A DNA stretch of 64,000 nt, taken from a bacterium. Lineage in GTDB: Bacteria > Patescibacteriota > Minisyncoccia > JAHIHE01. A program made the translations under genes and the position numbers. Below, one piece after another: positions 1 to 6,154 of this stretch. The notes beneath the pieces are model-generated. The model did not search any database and had not been told where the DNA came from. It saw only the letters and a program-made list of their open reading frames with translations. The stretch lies in contig JAUYBG010000010.1 of the NCBI GenBank assembly GCA_030693205.1, forward strand, positions 130,059-194,058, given 5' to 3'. How positions within the stretch are numbered: the stretch's first letter is position 1; each line of letters starts with the position of its first letter.

Positions 1-1153
1 TGAAATAAATTTTGAAAAAGAACTTCTTGAAATGTCATTGCAGCTCAAAAACAGGAATTACCGGCTTGGAAAATATACTTGTTTTGCCATCACTGATCCC
101 AAAATCCGCGAGGTTTGGGCGGCTGACTTCCGCGACCGAATCATCCACCATTTGCTTGTCGGCTATCTTGAGCCTATTTGGGAGAAAAAATTCATTTTCC
201 ATTCCTACGCTTGCCGTAAAGAAAAAGGCGCGCATAAAGCTATAAAAAATCTCAGGCAAGCACTTAATATTCAATCGCCGAATATCCATAAATTATGGTA
301 TTTAAAAATAGACATAGAAAGTTTTTTTATGAGCATTAATAAATTCGTCCTTTTCTCGCTCGTTCAAAAACATATCAATAATACCGATATTTTATGGCTC
401 TCCAAGCTTATTATTTTCCAGAATCCAACCGACAATTATCTCATCAAGGGAGACAGAAAAATCCTAGCCTCTATTCCAAAAAACAAATCTTTTTTTCATG
501 CCCCGCCAAGCAACGGACTGCCTATTGGCAATTACACTTCACAATTTTTCGCCAATGTTTATCTCAATGAAGCCGATCAATTTATAAAACATAATCTTAA
601 ATGCCGCCATTATTTCCGCTATATGGATGATTTCTTGCTGCTTCACGAGGACAAAAATATTCTCCTGAAATGGCGAGATAAAATTTCAAATTTTCTTGAA
701 AACCGGCTAAAACTCACGCTTCATCCTAAAAAACAGTTTCTTCAGCCAGTTTCGCGCGGCATTGATTTTCTCGGTTATATCGTAAAACCCGATTATATTC
801 TCAGCCGAAGAAGAATTATCGCTAATTTCAAAAAGAAACTGCATTATTTCAATAAACTGCTGAATAATGATGCCGAGCCTTGGCCAGAAAAACAAAATTT
901 TCAACCCGCTCTACCCTTAATATTCCATAATCAAACGCCGGCTTTGGAATTTATCCTTGAAACGCAGGCAACTATCAATTCTTATTACGGACATTTCAAG
1001 CATGCCAATTGCTCATATCTTCGGAAAAATCTCTGCCAAAAATATTTTAAAGAGCTGAATAACTTTCTGGATCCTGCTGATAAAACTTTTTCATCTTTCA
1101 TTATCAACCCCGCAATCAAAAAGTTCTACCAAGAAAAAAATAAAGAATATTAA
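1..1153 (+). CDS. Diversity-generating retroelement (DGR) reverse transcriptase, 5'-partial (ORF open to window start)
   Basis: Translation carries RT motifs FRDRIIHHLL, the DGR-specific LPIGNYTSQFFANVY (IGxxxSQ replacing the group II QGxxxSP), catalytic YMDDF, and VSRGIDFLGY. Aligns colinearly with Bordetella phage bRT from about residue 58, and no stop codon in frame back to position 2, so the N-terminus lies outside the window. Stop TAA at 1151-1153. Confidence 0.85.
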   Translation, partial: EINFEKELLEMSLQLKNRNYRLGKYTCFAITDPKIREVWAADFRDRIIHHLLVGYLEPIWEKKFIFHSYACRKEKGAHKAIKNLRQALNIQSPNIHKLWYLKIDIESFFMSINKFVLFSLVQKHINNTDILWLSKLIIFQNPTDNYLIKGDRKILASIPKNKSFFHAPPSNGLPIGNYTSQFFANVYLNEADQFIKHNLKCRHYFRYMDDFLLLHEDKNILLKWRDKISNFLENRLKLTLHPKKQFLQPVSRGIDFLGYIVKPDYILSRRRIIANFKKKLHYFNKLLNNDAEPWPEKQNFQPALPLIFHNQTPALEFILETQATINSYYGHFKHANCSYLRKNLCQKYFKELNNFLDPADKTFSSFIINPAIKKFYQEKNKEY

Positions 1154-1268
1154 CGGACGGAAGACAGCGCGAAATCTGTTGCTATTGTTGACATTATTAT
1201 TATTGAAGTTGGAACAGGCGTTATTGCCCGCTATCCTCGCATTATTGTTGTTGTGCTGCTCCGAAAGC
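1154..1268 (-). repeat. DGR template repeat (TR), sense strand is minus
   Basis: 115-bp near-copy of 1862-1976. It differs at 13 positions; at 12 of them the TR base is A on the minus strand (T on plus). Read in the target frame it encodes an Asn-rich peptide (AAC/AAT codons) versus Tyr/Leu/Gly/Ser/Lys in the VR. Begins immediately after the RT stop codon. Confidence 0.8.
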
Positions 1269-1442
1269 AAATGTCCGTCCACTTGCTAAAATCCGGAAGC
1301 CATCGCAATAGTGTGCGTAGGCCGCCTGTCATATATCCTGTCTTCTGCATAAAACAGAGGAATGGACTAGAATCTCCATTTTCCACCCTCTCCCTTTTGC
1401 CGTGGCAAAAAAGGACTCTGGCAGGAATAGAATAATCATAAT

Positions 1443-1793
1443 TTATTGATTAGCCCATTTCTGCCAGCCACCAAGCTGTTTCCCTATTTCTTCTATTTTT
1501 TCATTGAACACCCCCAATTGCCCTCTGCTTATAACTTTCAAATCAAACGCCAAACGCAGATGAATCCTCAGTACTTCTTTTTTATAATCTATCTCGGCTA
1601 TTCCTGATAATTTTTCTTTCCCCGTCATCGCGTTGGTTTTCATCACCAAGTCCAAAATTCCATGAGCGGTATTTTTCAAGCGCTCTCCCAGCGTATATTT
1701 ATATTCTTTGCTGAAATTTTTTGTTGTTTTGTATATTTCCAGCGTGAGAATATACGCAGATTGAAATATGGATATATGATCATAACGCGCCAT
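1443..1793 (-). CDS. avd: Avd (accessory variability determinant), four-helix-bundle / 23S rRNA IVS-protein family
   Basis: 116 aa, lies between the VR and TR in the same orientation. Similar to bAvd (YDHISIF.., LRIHLRLAFDLK, GKQLGGWQKW matching YDQMLIV.., LRFWLRFLAGIQ, GRILGSWI). Confidence 0.75.
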   Translation of the reverse strand: MARYDHISIFQSAYILTLEIYKTTKNFSKEYKYTLGERLKNTAHGILDLVMKTNAMTGKEKLSGIAEIDYKKEVLRIHLRLAFDLKVISRGQLGVFNEKIEEIGKQLGGWQKWANQ

Positions 1794-1858
1794 AAAATTA
1801 AATCAAATAATTCAAATATCCAAATTGTCTAATCATCAAATTGGAAAATGGAGAAAAC

Positions 1859-3523
1859 TTACGGACGGAAGACAGCGCGAAATCTGCTGCTACCGTAGAC
1901 AAGATTATTATTGAAGTAGGAACAGGCGTTATAGCCCGCTATCCTCGCACCCTTGTAGTAGTGCTGCTCCGAAAGCCATTCCCAAGAACCGCTATTAGAC
2001 AAATCTAAAAATTCATCAGTCCTGCCAACTTGCCCGCCATAATTACCATAGGTTTTATCAGCCGTGTATGCCCCTATAGTACTTTCATAATTAGAACCGC
2101 CGTCTTTATATCCGCAAAATCCGAAAAAATCGCTAGCCGTAGGCAATCTCGTGCCTTTCCAATTATTCAAAACCTCCTGTGTTAGCGGACCATTATTACC
2201 GTTTAGTTGGTCGTCAACATCTCCATCAACGATGGTTGTCGGGTTGTAAGTCGCATGCGGAACAAGATAAATAATCGCGAATGTTGAACCAATAGCCGGA
2301 TCCCCGCCTGTCCAGCCAGCCACAGTGAGCGCCGTTGCCGTATTGCTTTCAATTCGACCATAACTGCCCAAACCTGTACCACCAGTAATAAGCGCTTTTT
2401 GCCCAACCCATGCATTGGCGTTTAAAGAAAGTGAGGAGTCGGTTATGCTTGTTGCGTTTGCCGCCGTGGCTGTGCTAACCTTGACCGCGCGACTTGCTTC
2501 AGTGGGTAGCAAATCTCGGATGCCGTCATAGCAATCAGCGGTAGCCAGAGCAATAGCGCCGACGCCGACTTGCGCCGAAGTTGGATAAGACCCCCAACTG
2601 GGCGCGCCACTTGGAAAACTGCCGGCGCATGTCCAGTCACCTATCCATGAATTATCATAAAGAGCAAAACCGTCATCTTCAACAGCAAAAACCGAAGTGG
2701 CATCCGGCGTGCCGCAATTTGAAGCATAGGCGGAAGAAAGCCACGAACCATACACGGTAATAGTATCAGCGGTATTTAATTTGACAACGCCCCAGCAGTT
2801 GATAGCGGTGCCGGCAGTGATTTTAACAATCATATTCGCGTAAGCGTTCGCCGTCCAAACCGCGCCTGTTTTAATAATGGAATCTGCCGAACCGCCAGTC
2901 GCCGCCTGAGCGGTAATAGGCGTTGAGCCAATCTGCTCTGAACCATTCCAAGATAATGAAGTGACAGCTGATGCCCGAACACAAACACCGTCTTCGGGAT
3001 CAATGGTGTCGCCATCGCCGTTACCATCTTCAAACCAGTACCAAGCCGGGTTCTGGGCGTCGCAGGCGGCTTGAGTTATGCTAGTGCCAGACCATGCTGT
3101 GCCCGGATAGCCGGAATAAGCGCCTGTGGAAGAAACGCCAAAGGCCGTTCCTTTTTTAACCGTTGCTGTTGATAAATTATCAGCATTATAAGTGCCGGCT
3201 ACGCCTAGATATGATGTTCCGAGTTTGACAGTGTTGTCGACAATAGTGGGAATTGAATTATAAATTTCGGTCAAAGTGCGGCCGGTTCCTTCCAAGTTAT
3301 CCGAAAAAGCAAAACTATGACCGCCTTCAGTTGCCGTGGCATTAGTAGTTAGCCGCGTGTAAATTTCTGAAATAGTATAAAATTTCGCGGCAGGTTCGCT
3401 TCCGCCCGATGGCGGAGTAATAGTGCCGGCTTTAACAACCATAGAAATAATCAAAATCGAAATTAAAACGGTTAATCCGCTTTTAAACCCGCTGGATAAA
3501 TTTTGTTTATTAAAAATTCTCAT
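1859..3523 (-). CDS. DGR variable (target) protein, secreted/surface Thr-Gly-Ala-rich protein with C-terminal VR
   Basis: 554 aa with an N-terminal signal anchor. The last ~38 aa (EQHYYKGARIAGYNACSYFNNNLVYGSSRFRAVFRP) are encoded by the VR. Coding GC is visibly higher (about 50-58%) than the surrounding DNA. Confidence 0.8.
   Translation of the reverse strand: MRIFNKQNLSSGFKSGLTVLISILIISMVVKAGTITPPSGGSEPAAKFYTISEIYTRLTTNATATEGGHSFAFSDNLEGTGRTLTEIYNSIPTIVDNTVKLGTSYLGVAGTYNADNLSTATVKKGTAFGVSSTGAYSGYPGTAWSGTSITQAACDAQNPAWYWFEDGNGDGDTIDPEDGVCVRASAVTSLSWNGSEQIGSTPITAQAATGGSADSIIKTGAVWTANAYANMIVKITAGTAINCWGVVKLNTADTITVYGSWLSSAYASNCGTPDATSVFAVEDDGFALYDNSWIGDWTCAGSFPSGAPSWGSYPTSAQVGVGAIALATADCYDGIRDLLPTEASRAVKVSTATAANATSITDSSLSLNANAWVGQKALITGGTGLGSYGRIESNTATALTVAGWTGGDPAIGSTFAIIYLVPHATYNPTTIVDGDVDDQLNGNNGPLTQEVLNNWKGTRLPTASDFFGFCGYKDGGSNYESTIGAYTADKTYGNYGGQVGRTDEFLDLSNSGSWEWLSEQHYYKGARIAGYNACSYFNNNLVYGSSRFRAVFRP
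1862..1976 (-). repeat. DGR variable repeat (VR) at the 3' end of the target gene
   Basis: Homologous to the TR at 1154-1268, with adenine-specific differences. The 25-bp 3' end (cggacggaagacagcgcgaaatctg on plus) is identical in TR and VR and is a candidate IMH-like region. Confidence 0.8.
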
Positions 3524-3642
3524 AGTTTTATTATTAAACCGATTAATTAAAGCATAGATTTAAAAAATCAAAAAAGCGTCATAAAAAAGACGCTATATTG
3601 ATGAGTAATTTGAAAAAGATAAAACTCGGCGAGCCTTGTTTA

Positions 3643-3659
3643 CTCTCTCTCTCTCTCTC
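3643..3659. repeat. (CT)8 dinucleotide simple sequence repeat upstream of the DGR target gene
   Basis: ctctctctctctctctc seen directly in the intergenic region 120-135 bp upstream of the target start codon. Confidence 0.9.
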
Positions 3660-3782
3660 GTAATTCAGCCCTGCGGCTGAAATATATTTATAGTTTTGTT
3701 TAATCATAATTATATTATAGCATAATAAAAACTTAATGCAAAAGCCAAAATTGAAAATTCATGATTATTGAACCCGGAATAC

Positions 3783-3829
3783 GCTCTTATTATACCGCTT
3801 ATACCGCCAAACTGGCTTGCTTTCAAACT
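3783..3829. repeat. Direct repeat copy 1 (gctcttattataccg...aaactggcttgctttcaaact) flanking the TA module
   Basis: Matches 4902-4939 apart from an 11-bp indel. Weaker similarity extends about 20 bp further upstream in both copies. Confidence 0.7.
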
Positions 3830-3856
3830 TGATCCACCCGCGCCAATTCTACCACC

Positions 3857-4258
3857 TTAAAATAATTTTTGTCCGGCGTTTAAATATTCCTCCACCTGCA
3901 AAACAATTTTTTTCAGCCATTCTTTATAACTCAAAGACTCTTTTCTCGTAATCAAAACGCCTCCGCTATACAAATCAAAATTTCTTTTCTTTCTCATTTC
4001 ATTGCCCATCGCGAAAATATCTTCATCGCCTAAATATTCGGATAATTTTTTAACTAAATCAATATGATGCCCGACCCGCGACCTGACTCTCAAATTATTC
4101 TTGGCGCAGACCGCAATCGCGATTTTAAGCAAACTATCATAGGAAAATTTAAAAATAATCTCAGGAATATCCGAATCGCGGGCAATTTTAAAATCCTTGA
4201 GCGCCGAATTAAAATAATTTTCAATTTGCCTATCGGTAAATTCTTGTTTTTTAAACAT
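3857..4258 (-). CDS. HEPN-domain protein (toxin partner of MNT)
   Basis: 133 aa, immediately downstream of the nucleotidyltransferase gene with a 2-bp gap. Conserved HEPN-like R(x)4-6H-type region (RVRSRVGHH). Confidence 0.65.
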   Translation of the reverse strand: MFKKQEFTDRQIENYFNSALKDFKIARDSDIPEIIFKFSYDSLLKIAIAVCAKNNLRVRSRVGHHIDLVKKLSEYLGDEDIFAMGNEMRKKRNFDLYSGGVLITRKESLSYKEWLKKIVLQVEEYLNAGQKLF

Positions 4259-4260
4259 AT

Positions 4261-4872
4261 TTATAAAATTTTAACTGCTTTACCGCTAAAAATATTAGTT
4301 ATAAATTCATCTTTATTTTTTTTCCTTTTGGCAAATTCCTCTTCGGTTAAATCGACAACATTAATCTCGCGCCTGATTTTTTCCTGTACTGGCAGCAGCG
4401 CTTTTGCCGCTTCCATAACCTGATGATCGCCGATTATCAAAACATCAATATCGCTTTCCGCTTCAAAATCTCCTTTGGCGTATGAACCGAAAATATAAGC
4501 TTCTTTTATTCCTTTAATTTTCTTTAAGCTACAGGCAATCATATCTCCCAATCCGTATTTCAATTCAAAAGCTTTTTTTACTTCTTTAAGCAAAGGGTAA
4601 TTCTTGTTGATAAAATAATACCTTTGCTCGCCTGAAAATTCCGAGCTTAAAATTCCCTCTTTTTCCAATTTTTGCAGTTTTCGGCTTAAATTTCCCGGGT
4701 CAGCTTCCAAAATTCGCGCCAGTTCGTTGATATAATTTTTCTTGCTCGGATTTATAAAAAAATATCTTAGCGCCTTAATGGTAATTTCTGATTTAAGGTT
4801 AAACATATTATTATAATTCTTATTGTTAATTCTTACAATAGTTATTGTAGCATTATACAATAATTTAATCAA
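4261..4872 (-). CDS. Winged-HTH + minimal nucleotidyltransferase (MNT) protein, antitoxin partner
   Basis: N-terminal ArsR-like wHTH (INELARILEADPGNLSRKLQKLEKEGIL). NTase motif GSYAKGDFEAESDIDVLI. Real start is probably the internal Met near 4806. Confidence 0.75.
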   Translation of the reverse strand: MIKLLYNATITIVRINNKNYNNMFNLKSEITIKALRYFFINPSKKNYINELARILEADPGNLSRKLQKLEKEGILSSEFSGEQRYYFINKNYPLLKEVKKAFELKYGLGDMIACSLKKIKGIKEAYIFGSYAKGDFEAESDIDVLIIGDHQVMEAAKALLPVQEKIRREINVVDLTEEEFAKRKKNKDEFITNIFSGKAVKIL

Positions 4873-4951: not shown

Positions 4952-6154
4952 CTAACCTTTGTTTACCGACTCAAAAATCTCCAGCGTCTCTCTCGCGCAT
5001 TTGTTCCAGGAAAATTTTTTAGCCTGTTCGCGCCCTTTTAAGATCATTTTTTCTCTTAATTTTTCATTGCCTAGAACTTCTTCCATTGCCCGGGCAAGCT
5101 GGCCGCTATTGTAAGGATTGACCATTATGGCCGAAACTCCGACCACTTCCGGCAAAGACGAACAATCAGAAGTGATCACTGGCACATCGCTTGCCATCGC
5201 TTCCAGCGGCGGAAAACCGAAACCTTCATAGAAAGAAGGGTAAACGAACAAACTCGCAAGATTATATAAATACGCCTTGTCCTCATCCGCGATAAAACCG
5301 GTAAAAATTATATCGTCTTTCCAGGCGGAATGGCCAGCGGCATAAAATATGTCCTCGCAAAGCCACCCTTTGGAACCGGCGATCAATAACTTATGGCTTA
5401 AAGCCGATGGCGAATGGCTTTTTTTAAATAATTCAAAAGCCCTGATCAGCCCGATGATATTCTTGCGCGGCTCGATCGTTCCCAAATACAGAATATATTT
5501 TTCCGGCAAATTATATTTAATTTTAATTTCCTTAATTTTTGACCCTTTATCCTCCGTAGTTTTACTGTGTCCTTCTGAAGCCTTTGGCGAAAGAGGAGCG
5601 CAGGAGGAGACTCCGGAATAAATTACTTTTATTTTTTCTTTCGGAATGCCGTAGATCTCCCGAAGATCGTTCTTCGTCGATTCGGAAACCGCAATGATAA
5701 AATCCGCTTCCCGGGCAATTTTTTTGGGATTGACAAAATTATGCCAAAAAATCTGCTTGGGAGAAAAAAAATTGCTGTATTTTTCAAAAGAAAGATCGTG
5801 GAAAGTAACGACTTTTTTTGCTTTAAAAGACGGGAGCAGGTTAATATTCGGCTCAAACACAATATCCGCGCCATTCATTAATTTATCGATTTTAGGCCAG
5901 GAAAAAACCTTGAATGAAGCGTTCAAAATACGATTGGGAATAGACGAGCGGCAGAGGTCAATGTTAGAATTATTTTTTTTCGCTTTTTGGGAAAAATCCA
6001 AATAACGATTGCTTATGCTCTGGCCGCTGCTAAATAACAGGTATTTATTTTTATGATCAATGCTAAAAAGAGCGTTAAGGAGATTTAAAGCATATTCTTC
6101 CACGCCCGAATATTTTCCCTGCCCGATTGCCCGTAAATCAATGCCGATTATCAT
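4952..6154 (-). CDS. Glycosyltransferase family 1 (GT4-type)
   Basis: C-terminal GT1 signature [21 protein letters not shown]. 400 aa. Confidence 0.8.

Follow-up and report, generated by a model that had tools for sequence, protein, structure and literature searches.

Components of the retroelement

The window (the whole stretch of DNA analysed, 64,000 nt) carries a diversity-generating retroelement (DGR) at its left edge: a template repeat (TR) and variable repeat (VR) pair, a reverse transcriptase (RT), Avd, and a target gene with the VR at its 3′ end (Table 1). An earlier note on this DNA described an inverted cassette, with RT on the plus strand and TR, avd, VR and target on the minus strand in the order target-VR-avd-TR. 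The open reading frames, the TR/VR alignment and the coordinates all agree with that description.

Table 1. Features of the DGR locus and of its predicted RNA elements, in window positions
Feature	Position	Strand	Description
RT gene	2..1153	+	ORF open from base 2; TAA 1151-1153; RVT_1
Proposed 3′ strand of long-range helix, AUUCUUUAUUUUUU	1135..1148	-	pairs with 1384-1371; overlaps RT codons K-N-K-E-Y
Template repeat (TR)	1153..1268	-	116 nt, 37 adenines; TR/VR alignment
R1 structured leader RNA	1262..1426	-	165 nt; RNAalifold, covariance model
R1 P3 hairpin	1323-1314/1307-1298	-	predicted helix
R1 P2 hairpin	1358-1351/1344-1337	-	predicted helix
R1 P0 long-range helix	1367-1360/1280-1273	-	predicted helix
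R1 segment GGAAAAUGGAGAUU	1371..1384	-	complementary to TR and VR 3′ flanks; candidate primer-strand analogue
R1 P1 hairpin	1415-1405/1400-1391	-	predicted helix
avd accessory gene	1443..1793	-	Pfam bAvd, NCBIfam DivGenRetAVD
VR 3′ flank	1794..1858	-	12-nt box UCUCCAUUUUCC, then four ATTTG repeats
Target gene	1859..3523	-	554 aa; N-terminal hydrophobic anchor, C-terminal VR
Variable repeat (VR)	1861..1976	-	target gene 3′ end; TR/VR alignment

The RT reading frame leaves the window at its left edge and is ~33 N-terminal residues short relative to its homologues. It matches Pfam RVT_1 (1.4e-20), and its motifs read LPIGNYTSQFFANVYL and FRYMDDFLLL, combining the catalytic YxDD with the [I/L/V]GxxxSQ that replaces QGxxxSP in DGR-clade RTs. 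Both I/LGNxxSQ and YMDD are invariant across the window RT and 29 homologues (30 sequences). RT homologues at E ≤ 1e-20 number 6599, and the nearest carry the names Patescibacteria, Moranbacteria, Doudnabacteria and Falkowbacteria. The avd product scores above the cut-off for Pfam bAvd (3.3e-19, 69.8 bits, cut-off 40) and slightly under that for NCBIfam DivGenRetAVD (5.5e-21, 74.8 bits, cut-off 80). Sequence comparisons of the target protein with Pfam, NCBIfam and PDB returned no match; the VR makes up the last 38 codons of its reading frame.

The TR (1268..1153) aligns with the VR (1976..1861) without gaps over its full length, at an offset of 708. Twelve of the 13 mismatches fall at TR adenines of the minus strand, all at codon positions 1 or 2 of the VR, and AAC and AAT codons are abundant in the TR. 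Given the adenine content of the TR, this bias is far beyond chance. The remaining mismatch is the single T-to-G difference that had been noted before (TR 1244, VR 1952; AAT to AAG, codon position 3). The final 26 nt of the TR are identical to the VR, GC-rich and IMH*-like, and beyond them 11 of 18 positions are similar. Since the TR/VR identity reaches 1153, the TR overlaps the final base of the RT stop codon; the two do adjoin, as previously described, with the boundary one base off from the 1154 given then. A blastn search of the 64 kb window found no further TR-like copies.

The ATTTG repeats that follow the VR are enriched and extend as far as the start codon of avd. A promoter-like site at 3742-3714 (minus strand) was considered as the operon promoter, a claim that we withhold because a terminator-like hairpin (3594-3575) intervenes before the target start.

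Convergent RT genes in related elements

The earlier note treated the architecture as unusual and the exact abutment of RT stop and TR as special, and neither view survives comparison with relatives. The survey of related DGRs from the candidate phyla radiation (CPR) that it envisaged shows a convergent TR just beyond the RT stop at 25 of 30 loci whose RT is at least 47% identical, and at all 12 loci with an RT identity of at least 52%. The six close relatives (68-82% identity) have RT on the plus strand, with avd on the minus strand wherever the contig reaches avd. The distance from RT stop to TR end lies between -45 and +54 nt in most loci, a range in which exact abutment is one point; seven loci have larger distances, of about +290 to +940 nt. 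A convergent RT is the rule for this Patescibacteria-centred RT clade and is not novel per se.

Inverted cassettes have been described before (Schillinger et al. 2012; Wu et al. 2018; Yan et al. 2019; MyDGR 2019), and in this clade they are ordinary. Group 4 of Schillinger et al. 2012 (Shewanella, Vibrio, Photobacterium) and G5 of Yan et al. 2019 share with the window an RT opposite to TR, VR and target. Those papers present inversion as rare, and the 2012 paper as a single gamma-proteobacterial event, whereas it is the dominant state in the clade of the window. The existence of inverted DGRs shows that the mRNA for the RT and the template RNA can be separate transcripts. TR/RT-stop abutment and RNA elements are not discussed in these four sources. 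The CPR DGR set of Wu et al. 2018 and Paul et al. 2017 resembles the window in its Avd cassette, a single target without known domains and occasional non-A differences; Wu et al. 2018 state that architecture B3, TR-(avd)-RT, accounts for 90% of their set.

A structured leader RNA upstream of the TR

The avd and TR of the window are separated by 174 nt, whereas the Bordetella TR follows avd almost directly. This interval holds a structured leader RNA, R1, whose RNAalifold consensus from seven sequences has 41 pairs, 19 of them with compensatory changes (9.4 +/- 1.9 in shuffles). In the same alignment 95% of cells are paired, compared with 40-56% when the sequences are slid. The covariance model finds R1 at 34 loci (E < 1e-3), with 92.5% of cells paired as against 48% when slid, counts that are inflated because the 34 sequences were aligned by fitting them to the model. 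The leader also folds better than its shuffles (z = -2.67), and the frequent G:U pairs place the structure on the TR-sense strand. A search of Rfam, including the RT-1 to RT-19 motifs, with both strands of window positions 1-4000 gave no match at E ≤ 1.

At every locus with a detected TR, the end of R1 falls within the first TR bases. This adjacency holds in three architectures: avd-R1-TR-(RT), avd-R1-TR-RT (L024, L033, L057, L080) and RT-R1-TR-avd (L005, L006, L009). R1 is a covarying structured RNA that always adjoins the 5′ side of the TR. Among canonical-orientation relatives the covariance model matched a minority only; a few loci and a similar avd-TR spacing suggest that R1 may extend beyond the convergent clade. 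The convergent arrangement seems possible because the structured RNA precedes the TR instead of following it. The earlier suggestion of a different priming region gains some support from the location of the bulk of the conserved structure, upstream of the TR and downstream of avd; priming by this RNA is putative.

Sequence downstream of the TR

RNA running 3′ of the TR in the window is indeed antisense to the RT C-terminus, and the conclusion drawn earlier, that a Bordetella-type 140-nt non-coding spacer is impossible here, is correct. The locus departs from the Bordetella-type DGR RNA layout in that the TR abuts the RT stop, the antisense strand has no conserved structure and Rfam RT-10 is not matched. 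Loci with R1 have no room for a 3′ spacer after the TR: its 3′ neighbour is the antisense RT C-terminus, an RT start at 7-34 nt, or avd at 42 nt, as against 156-167 nt 3′ of the TR in loci of classical layout. In several relatives (L002, L003, L095 and L004) a strong hairpin does lie directly 3′ of the TR.

A spacer could still be embedded in the RT gene, the main reading of the earlier note, with the TR transcript running ~140 nt into it, the antisense RNA holding Avd-binding, priming and RT-binding elements, and the C-terminal RT codons doubly constrained. The geometry permits such an overlap, and elements downstream of the TR are predicted in 207 of 278 Avd-type DGRs (Handa et al., bioRxiv 10.1101/2023.10.23.563531). 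The window also contains a perfect 10-nt complement between ACGGACAUUU (1281-1272) and AAAUGUCCGU (~992-983), the latter some 156 nt beyond the TR on its 3′ side, on the strand opposite the RT codons that encode YGHF. Relatives do not retain this complement, however: L165 and L166 carry uncompensated synonymous differences, and duplexfold pairing of the 30 nt 5′ of the TR with the 260 nt 3′ of it is not significant against shuffles. In a codon-guided alignment of 25 convergent loci, RNAalifold predicted no consensus pairing across the 200 nt opposite the RT C-terminus, and minus-strand positions 1152-1000 of the window fold no better than shuffles (z = -0.25). Moreover, the position of the RT stop with respect to the TR varies by 100 nt, and what follows the TR in relatives that share the leader is unrelated sequence (the sense RT N-terminus, or avd). 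An embedded spacer is, on this evidence, quite improbable.

Proposed long-range pairing of the leader with the TR and VR flanks

One segment of R1, GGAAAAUGGAGAUU, ends 3 nt upstream of the P0 5′ strand and can pair with the sequence just beyond the TR. In the window this leader/tail helix would be A-U and G-U rich, with 13 of 14 positions paired, four of them G:U, and one U-U mismatch. Across loci, the leader/TR-flank duplex energy is -9.1 kcal/mol for cognate and -5.3 kcal/mol for non-cognate combinations, and none of 20000 permutations reached the cognate mean. Cognate pairs include GGGAAUUAC:GUAAUUCCC in L003, AGAUGAC:GUCGUCU in L004 and AAAAUCUAUU:AAUAGAUUUU in L006, and the lengths of A-run and U-run match in L164 (7/7) and in L165-L167 (6/6). 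A k-mer scan of any R1 column against the TR end gave a weak peak, weakly above shuffles; the signal is clear once the flank beyond the TR/VR identity is included and cognate and non-cognate combinations are compared. In the window the segment has an alternative partner within the TR 3′ end (GUCUUCCGU), with a better energy than the flank pairing. A further candidate helix, in which the P0 3′ strand (GGACGGAC) would pair with UCCGUCC at the 3′ end of the TR, looks plausible on inspection of some loci; it was rejected, as it needs register shifts and has no clean covariation.

The 1-nt difference in U-run length shifts the RT frame in L165-L167, and the RT tails differ, while the nucleotides of the 1135-1148 stretch are conserved despite these indels. 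To judge from its sequence, 1148-1135 looks like a functional RNA strand overlapping the last RT codons. The sense/antisense overlap suspected in the earlier note would accordingly be confined to this short stretch, which pairs with the leader and encodes the last RT codons; the antisense RT C-terminal region as a whole has no conserved structure.

The same R1 segment finds a perfect 12-nt complement in the VR 3′ flank, in the box UCUCCAUUUUCC (~1851-1840), and this complementarity too was reached in 0 of 20000 permutations.

R1 might instead be unrelated to reverse transcription, serving as a 3′-UTR, processing, stability or regulatory element of avd, or as a regulatory promoter or leader of the TR RNA, with priming elsewhere, for example from the 3′-OH of a processed RNA end. 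Priming from the 3′-OH of a nicked template RNA has been described (Naorem et al. 2017, PMC5703328), R1 directly follows avd in two of the three architectures, and protein binding by R1 is itself a prediction. In the RT-R1-TR-avd loci, however, R1 follows RT rather than avd and still adjoins the TR. The R1 segment co-varies with the TR and VR 3′ flanks, which would be unexpected for a pure UTR element, and the P0 helix lies 4-10 nt 5′ of the TR, the site of the Bordetella stop duplex. We therefore regard a role apart from reverse transcription as unlikely.

A model for the template RNA

What is known of the DGR mechanism comes from a single phage system, where priming, processivity and termination are organised by a spacer RNA 3′ of the TR. 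CPR bacteria carry DGRs in abundance, and to our knowledge none of these has been reconstituted. The arrangement described above is probably that of an intact, CPR-centred DGR with a convergent RT, whose template RNA is circularly permuted and carries R1 on the 5′ side in place of a 3′ spacer.

The template RNA would be transcribed from the minus strand and consist of the R1 leader, the TR and then only ~15-20 nt. R1 would carry, 5′ of the TR, the kinds of element that the Bordetella phage DGR has in its 3′ spacer. These would be, in order, the P1 stem-loop with a tetraloop; a purine-rich strand that pairs with the 3′ end of the TR or the sequence immediately beyond it; three nucleotides on, a strand of the P0 helix, whose partner lies directly 5′ of the TR; the short P2 hairpin, followed by adenosines; a single-stranded stretch; and the P3 hairpin. 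In such a layout the TR would form a loop between two neighbouring helices, as it does in the ribonucleoprotein of Bordetella. Because a short 3′ strand would suffice, the neighbouring gene could adjoin the TR, or run into it, on either strand, and in the window the final six RT codons and the stop codon would share their DNA with that strand.

More tentatively, R1 may act as a permuted spacer that brings RT and Avd together upstream of the template, with the GGAAAAUGGAGAUU strand priming cDNA on the TR 3′ flank and RNA-DNA pairing guiding the cDNA to the target; we hold this possible, with considerable reservation. The guiding step is suggested by the complementarity of the same strand to the DNA immediately downstream of the VR stop codon, by which an RNA-linked cDNA could be directed to the target. 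That R1 binds RT and Avd, that its segment is the primer strand, and where the cDNA starts, we infer.

The closest point of comparison is the DGR of Bordetella phage BPP-1 (mtd-avd-TR-Sp-brt), which has in common with the window a C-terminal VR in the target, Avd, an adenine-mutagenised TR and a group-II-intron-like RT. In the BPP-1 ribonucleoprotein, as in our model, a pair of adjacent helices encloses the TR, one directly 5′ of it and one at its 3′ end. The BPP-1 spacer, with the element order of Handa et al. (bioRxiv 10.1101/2023.10.23.563531), and R1 would share the succession of stem-loop, primer-like strand, stop-helix strand, short hairpin with adenosines, single strand and hairpin. Unlike BPP-1, the window has its RT on the opposite strand, lacks a 140-nt spacer 3′ of the TR, and has its structured RNA 5′ of the TR, in circularly permuted form. 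The VR is followed by the ATTTG repeats rather than by the GC-rich inverted repeat of BPP-1. R1 has no sequence or Rfam similarity to Sp (RT-10 motif), and the proposed correspondence is one of element order and type rather than of sequence homology. Counting against the R1 model, many Avd-type DGRs, CPR elements included, have predicted Avd-binding stem-loops on the 3′ side of the TR (Handa et al., bioRxiv 10.1101/2023.10.23.563531), and so do the strong hairpins at that place in L002, L003, L095 and L004.

If a large CPR-centred lineage uses a 5′ leader and a short 3′ strand, searches confined to the sequence downstream of the TR would miss its RNA elements, and the minimal RNA for reconstituting or engineering compact DGRs would be R1, the TR and ~20 nt. 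The model would also explain the frequent RT inversions in this lineage and its tolerance of any gene orientation beside the TR. Under the more tentative reading of priming and guiding by the GGAAAAUGGAGAUU strand, donor/recipient discrimination (IMH versus IMH*) would gain a base-pairing basis, and the complementarity between leader segment and VR flank offers a directly testable hypothesis for how cDNA finds its target.

Activity of the convergent elements

The element could be a fossil, with an inactive RT or RNA and VR differences that are historical. Such a reading could appeal to the RT N-terminus, which lies outside the window, to the one non-adenine mismatch, and to the population evidence, which comes from relatives of the window locus. 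Yet every ORF is intact, the catalytic YMDD and the DGR-type IGNxxSQ are present, and conservation extends to the TR, R1 and both flank boxes. The adenine-specific mismatches at codon positions 1 or 2 likewise count against this reading, and single non-A differences are common in CPR DGRs according to Wu et al. 2018. A fossil is, in our judgement, very improbable.

Relatives of the same architecture diversify between samples. In two of the three sample groups the TR is invariant, and in the remaining one it is nearly so. With the L002 sample group left out of the VR comparison, as it was misaligned by an indel, the VR differences fall at TR adenines at 16 of 17, 24 of 26 and 13 of 14 positions. 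These adenine-specific differences between samples indicate that the convergent architecture is active.

A convergent DGR in the window

A diversity-generating retroelement (DGR) lies at the left end of the window, and the layout described for it in the earlier note, in which RT is opposite in strand to target, avd and template repeat (TR), with the TR at the RT stop, is borne out by the ORFs, the alignment of TR and variable repeat (VR), and the RT and avd domain matches. The RT, ~33 N-terminal residues of which fall beyond the window edge, matches RVT_1 and carries YMDD and a DGR-type IGNxxSQ motif. TR/VR identity extends to 1153, the final base of the RT stop codon. The repeats differ at 13 of 116 nt; 12 of these mismatches are at TR adenines, all at codon positions 1 or 2, and the last is a T-to-G change at codon position 3 (1244/1952). 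The 64 kb window contains no second VR.

Coordinates of the DGR parts and of the helices of the leader RNA R1
Feature	Window position	Strand	Remark
RT ORF	2-1153	+	open from base 2; TAA at 1151-1153
Target ORF, 554 aa	3523-1859	-	ORF
avd, 116 aa	1793-1443	-	matches to bAvd/DivGenRetAVD
TR, 116 nt	1268-1153	-	174 nt beyond avd
VR, 116 nt	1976-1861	-	gapless alignment with TR
R1	1426-1262	-	between avd and TR
P1 hairpin	1415-1405/1400-1391	-	RNAalifold
P0 long-range helix closing junction	1367-1360/1280-1273	-	RNAalifold
P2 hairpin, within P0 junction	1358-1351/1344-1337	-	RNAalifold
P3 hairpin, within P0 junction	1323-1314/1307-1298	-	RNAalifold

Inverted cassettes are usual in the clade

The inverted architecture singled out in the earlier note is already published and ordinary for the clade. 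DGRs with RT opposite TR, VR and target were termed "inverted DGRs" by Schillinger et al. 2012, are also described by Wu et al., and constitute cassette pattern G5 of Yan et al. 2019; MyDGR copes with RT on the strand opposite TR, VR and target. We surveyed 160 loci with relatives of the window RT, drawn from one genome per species plus metagenomes, and in each sought repeat pairs with adenine-specific differences. Loci with RT at least 47% identical to the window RT are convergent in 25 of 30 cases (the others being one divergent, one canonical and three RT-TR-avd), as are all 12 at 52% or above. Six closer relatives found by exact protein look-up (RT 68-82% identical) all have RT on the plus strand, followed by avd on the minus strand where the contig is long enough. 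The distance from RT stop to TR 3' end runs from -45 nt (RT reads into TR) to +54 nt in most convergent loci and is about +290 to +940 nt in seven; the abutment seen in the window is one point within this range.

Three convergent relatives, each represented in several metagenomes, were compared for activity. The TRs are identical in two groups and nearly identical in the third, while variable VR positions fall at TR adenines in 16/17, 24/26 and 13/14 cases. The RT-stop-to-TR distances of these diversifying elements are -4, +17 and +12 nt.

Both contigs carrying the closest RT homologue (82% identical; L161, L162) stop 29 nt past the RT stop, where the TR starts, an artefact expected when a TR/VR repeat is assembled. 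Partly because such repeats break assemblies, convergent cassettes are under-recorded in short-contig collections.

A structured leader RNA accompanies the TR

The avd-TR interval is conserved. Across seven sequences, RNAalifold assigns 41 pairs to it, 19 of them with compensatory changes versus a shuffled expectation of 9.4 +/- 1.9; 95% of cells are paired, and offsetting the partners by 1-3 columns lowers this to 40-56%. Plentiful G:U pairs assign this structure, R1, to the TR-sense strand, and the 3' strand of P0 ends 4 nt from the start of TR/VR identity. A covariance model of R1 recovers 34 distinct loci at E<1e-3, whose alignment, being fitted to the model and so favouring the structure, has 92.5% of cells paired versus 48% when slid, with 39 of 41 pairs compensatory. 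R1 has no match in Rfam 15, and we found no description of it in the published literature.

Wherever a TR is detected, R1 ends inside its first bases, on the TR strand. This adjacency holds in three architectures: the window type, avd-R1-TR-(RT); avd-R1-TR-RT (L024, L033, L057, L080); and RT-R1-TR-avd (L005, L006, L009). R1 thus moves with the TR and not with avd or RT. Downstream of the TR, all three are coding, with the antisense RT C-terminus, the RT start (7-34 nt) or avd (42 nt), respectively. Cassettes sharing the leader have unrelated sequences 3' of the TR, so an essential 3' element, if any, must be short. Farther relatives of classical layout have avd 0-25 nt upstream of the TR and 156-167 nt of room 3' of it. 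Four loci with RT 42-45% identical (L018, L019, L039, L054) display a fourth order, target-TR-avd on one strand with RT convergent, in which the RT 3' end adjoins or overlaps avd instead of the TR; a weak R1 match lies 5' of the TR in L018 (E=0.26).

R1 is complementary to the flanks of TR and VR

In the closest relatives, nucleotide sequence is conserved over ~25 nt past the TR. A 1-nt difference in a U-run nonetheless alters the RT frame, and RT reads 10-14 codons deeper into the TR in L163, L165-L167 and L081. This TR 3' flank is complementary to an R1 segment that precedes the 5' strand of P0 by 3 nt. In L165, AAAAAAUGGAGAUU pairs with AAUCUCUAUUUUUU over 14 pairs, and the lengths of the A-run and U-run match (7/7 in L164; 6/6 in L165-L167). 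In distant loci the two strands change together, as in L003 (GGGAAUUAC:GUAAUUCCC), L095 (CGGGAAUU:AAUUCCCG), L004 (AGAUGAC:GUCGUCU), L006 (AAAAUCUAUU:AAUAGAUUUU) and L033 (AAACAUU:AAUGUUU). Over 20 diverse loci, cognate duplexes average -9.1 versus -5.3 kcal/mol for non-cognate ones, and 0 of 20000 random re-pairings attain the cognate mean. In the window, 1384-1371 pairs with 1135-1148, the antisense of RT codons K-N-K-E-Y, at 13 of 14 positions (four G:U, one U-U mismatch); because, for the window alone, a partner within the 3' end of the TR gives the more stable duplex, this register rests on homology with relatives.

A second complement of the same R1 segment lies directly 3' of the VR stop codon and, in the window, is perfect over 12 nt (UCUCCAUUUUCC). 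Cognate duplexes average -9.6 versus -5.2 kcal/mol, a mean attained by 0 of 20000 permutations. By analogy, the TR and VR flanks may behave like an IMH/IMH* pair (recipient and donor repeat ends), with the recipient flank as the better complement.

Four ATTTG repeats follow the VR between target stop and avd start (1794-1858, minus strand). Counted per 90 nt in relatives whose RT is 33% identical or more, ATTTG reaches 1.34 copies after the VR, against 0.29 after the TR and 0.18 in background; more distant classical-layout DGRs have no such enrichment. The repeats may be a target-site signal replacing the GC-rich inverted repeat of Bordetella.

The antisense RT region

The earlier note raised the concern that RNA 3' of the TR must also encode the RT C-terminus. 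That concern was justified and is confirmed in part: only a short overlap of this kind is supported, by the flank complementarity, and the main RNA scaffold lies elsewhere. RNAalifold finds zero consensus base pairs when the final ~75 RT codons of 25 convergent loci, in a codon-guided alignment, are read as antisense RNA. Shuffled versions of window 1152-1000 (minus strand) fold about as well as the native sequence (z = -0.25). The RT codons for YGHF are linked to the P0 3' strand, immediately 5' of the TR, by an inverted repeat perfect over 10 bp, ACGGACATTT / AAATGTCCGT (983-992 and 1272-1281, plus strand); since relatives do not keep this complement with compensation, chance or a side effect of P0 is its probable origin. 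Taken together, these three results leave a structured spacer inside the RT gene unsupported.

Many convergent relatives (L002, L003, L095, L004, L108, L084, L086) have a strong GC-rich hairpin within the 20-70 nt that follow the TR, overlapping the RT C-terminal tail or a short gap; the window and its closest relatives are without it. The hairpin could serve as a stem-loop that binds Avd, or else mark the RNA 3' end or a termination site between the convergent genes.

Comparison with the Bordetella spacer

In the Bordetella phage DGR, the 140-nt spacer RNA (Sp) lies 3' of the TR and comprises, in order, a stem-loop that binds Avd, a primer strand that pairs with the 3' end of the TR, a strand of the "stop" duplex (its partner being immediately 5' of the TR), a short hairpin and then adenosines, a single-stranded "thumb ring", and a stem-loop that binds RT (Handa et al., bioRxiv 10.1101/2023.10.23.563531). 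R1 shows the same order, with a stem-loop first, then a primer-like strand, a stop strand, a short hairpin and after it AUA/AAA, a single strand and a hairpin. Likewise, the segment:TR-flank helix and P0 are adjacent, with the TR looped out, as in the template:primer and stop duplex topology. Unlike Sp, R1 precedes the TR, and the connectivity is that of a circular permutation. R1 may be seen as a circularly permuted counterpart of Sp placed 5' of the TR, and such a permutation would allow the lineage to tolerate RT inversion and an RT stop drifting into the TR. This permuted-spacer and primer reading, based on element order and type rather than homology, is tentative, and we would sooner doubt than assert it. 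The overall account, a convergent DGR with a 5' R1 leader, we regard as reasonably probable. Within it, we are confident of a functional, convergent DGR and of R1 as a genuine RNA linked to the TR. What is new here is R1 itself, together with its complementarity to the sequences flanking TR and VR.

Neighbourhood upstream of the target

Ahead of the target gene are a promoter-like site (3742-3714, minus strand; 10/12 matches, extended -10), a (CT)n run at ~3645-3660 and, just before the target start, a terminator-like hairpin with T-run (3594-3575, minus strand). Window 3857-4872 (minus strand) encodes a 203-aa protein with HTH and nucleotidyltransferase domains (Pfam NTP_transf_2/Polbeta, 1.6e-11), followed by a 133-aa ORF without a match in the Pfam search; the two genes recall MNT/HEPN toxin-antitoxin pairs. 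Window 4952-6154 encodes a GT4 glycosyltransferase.
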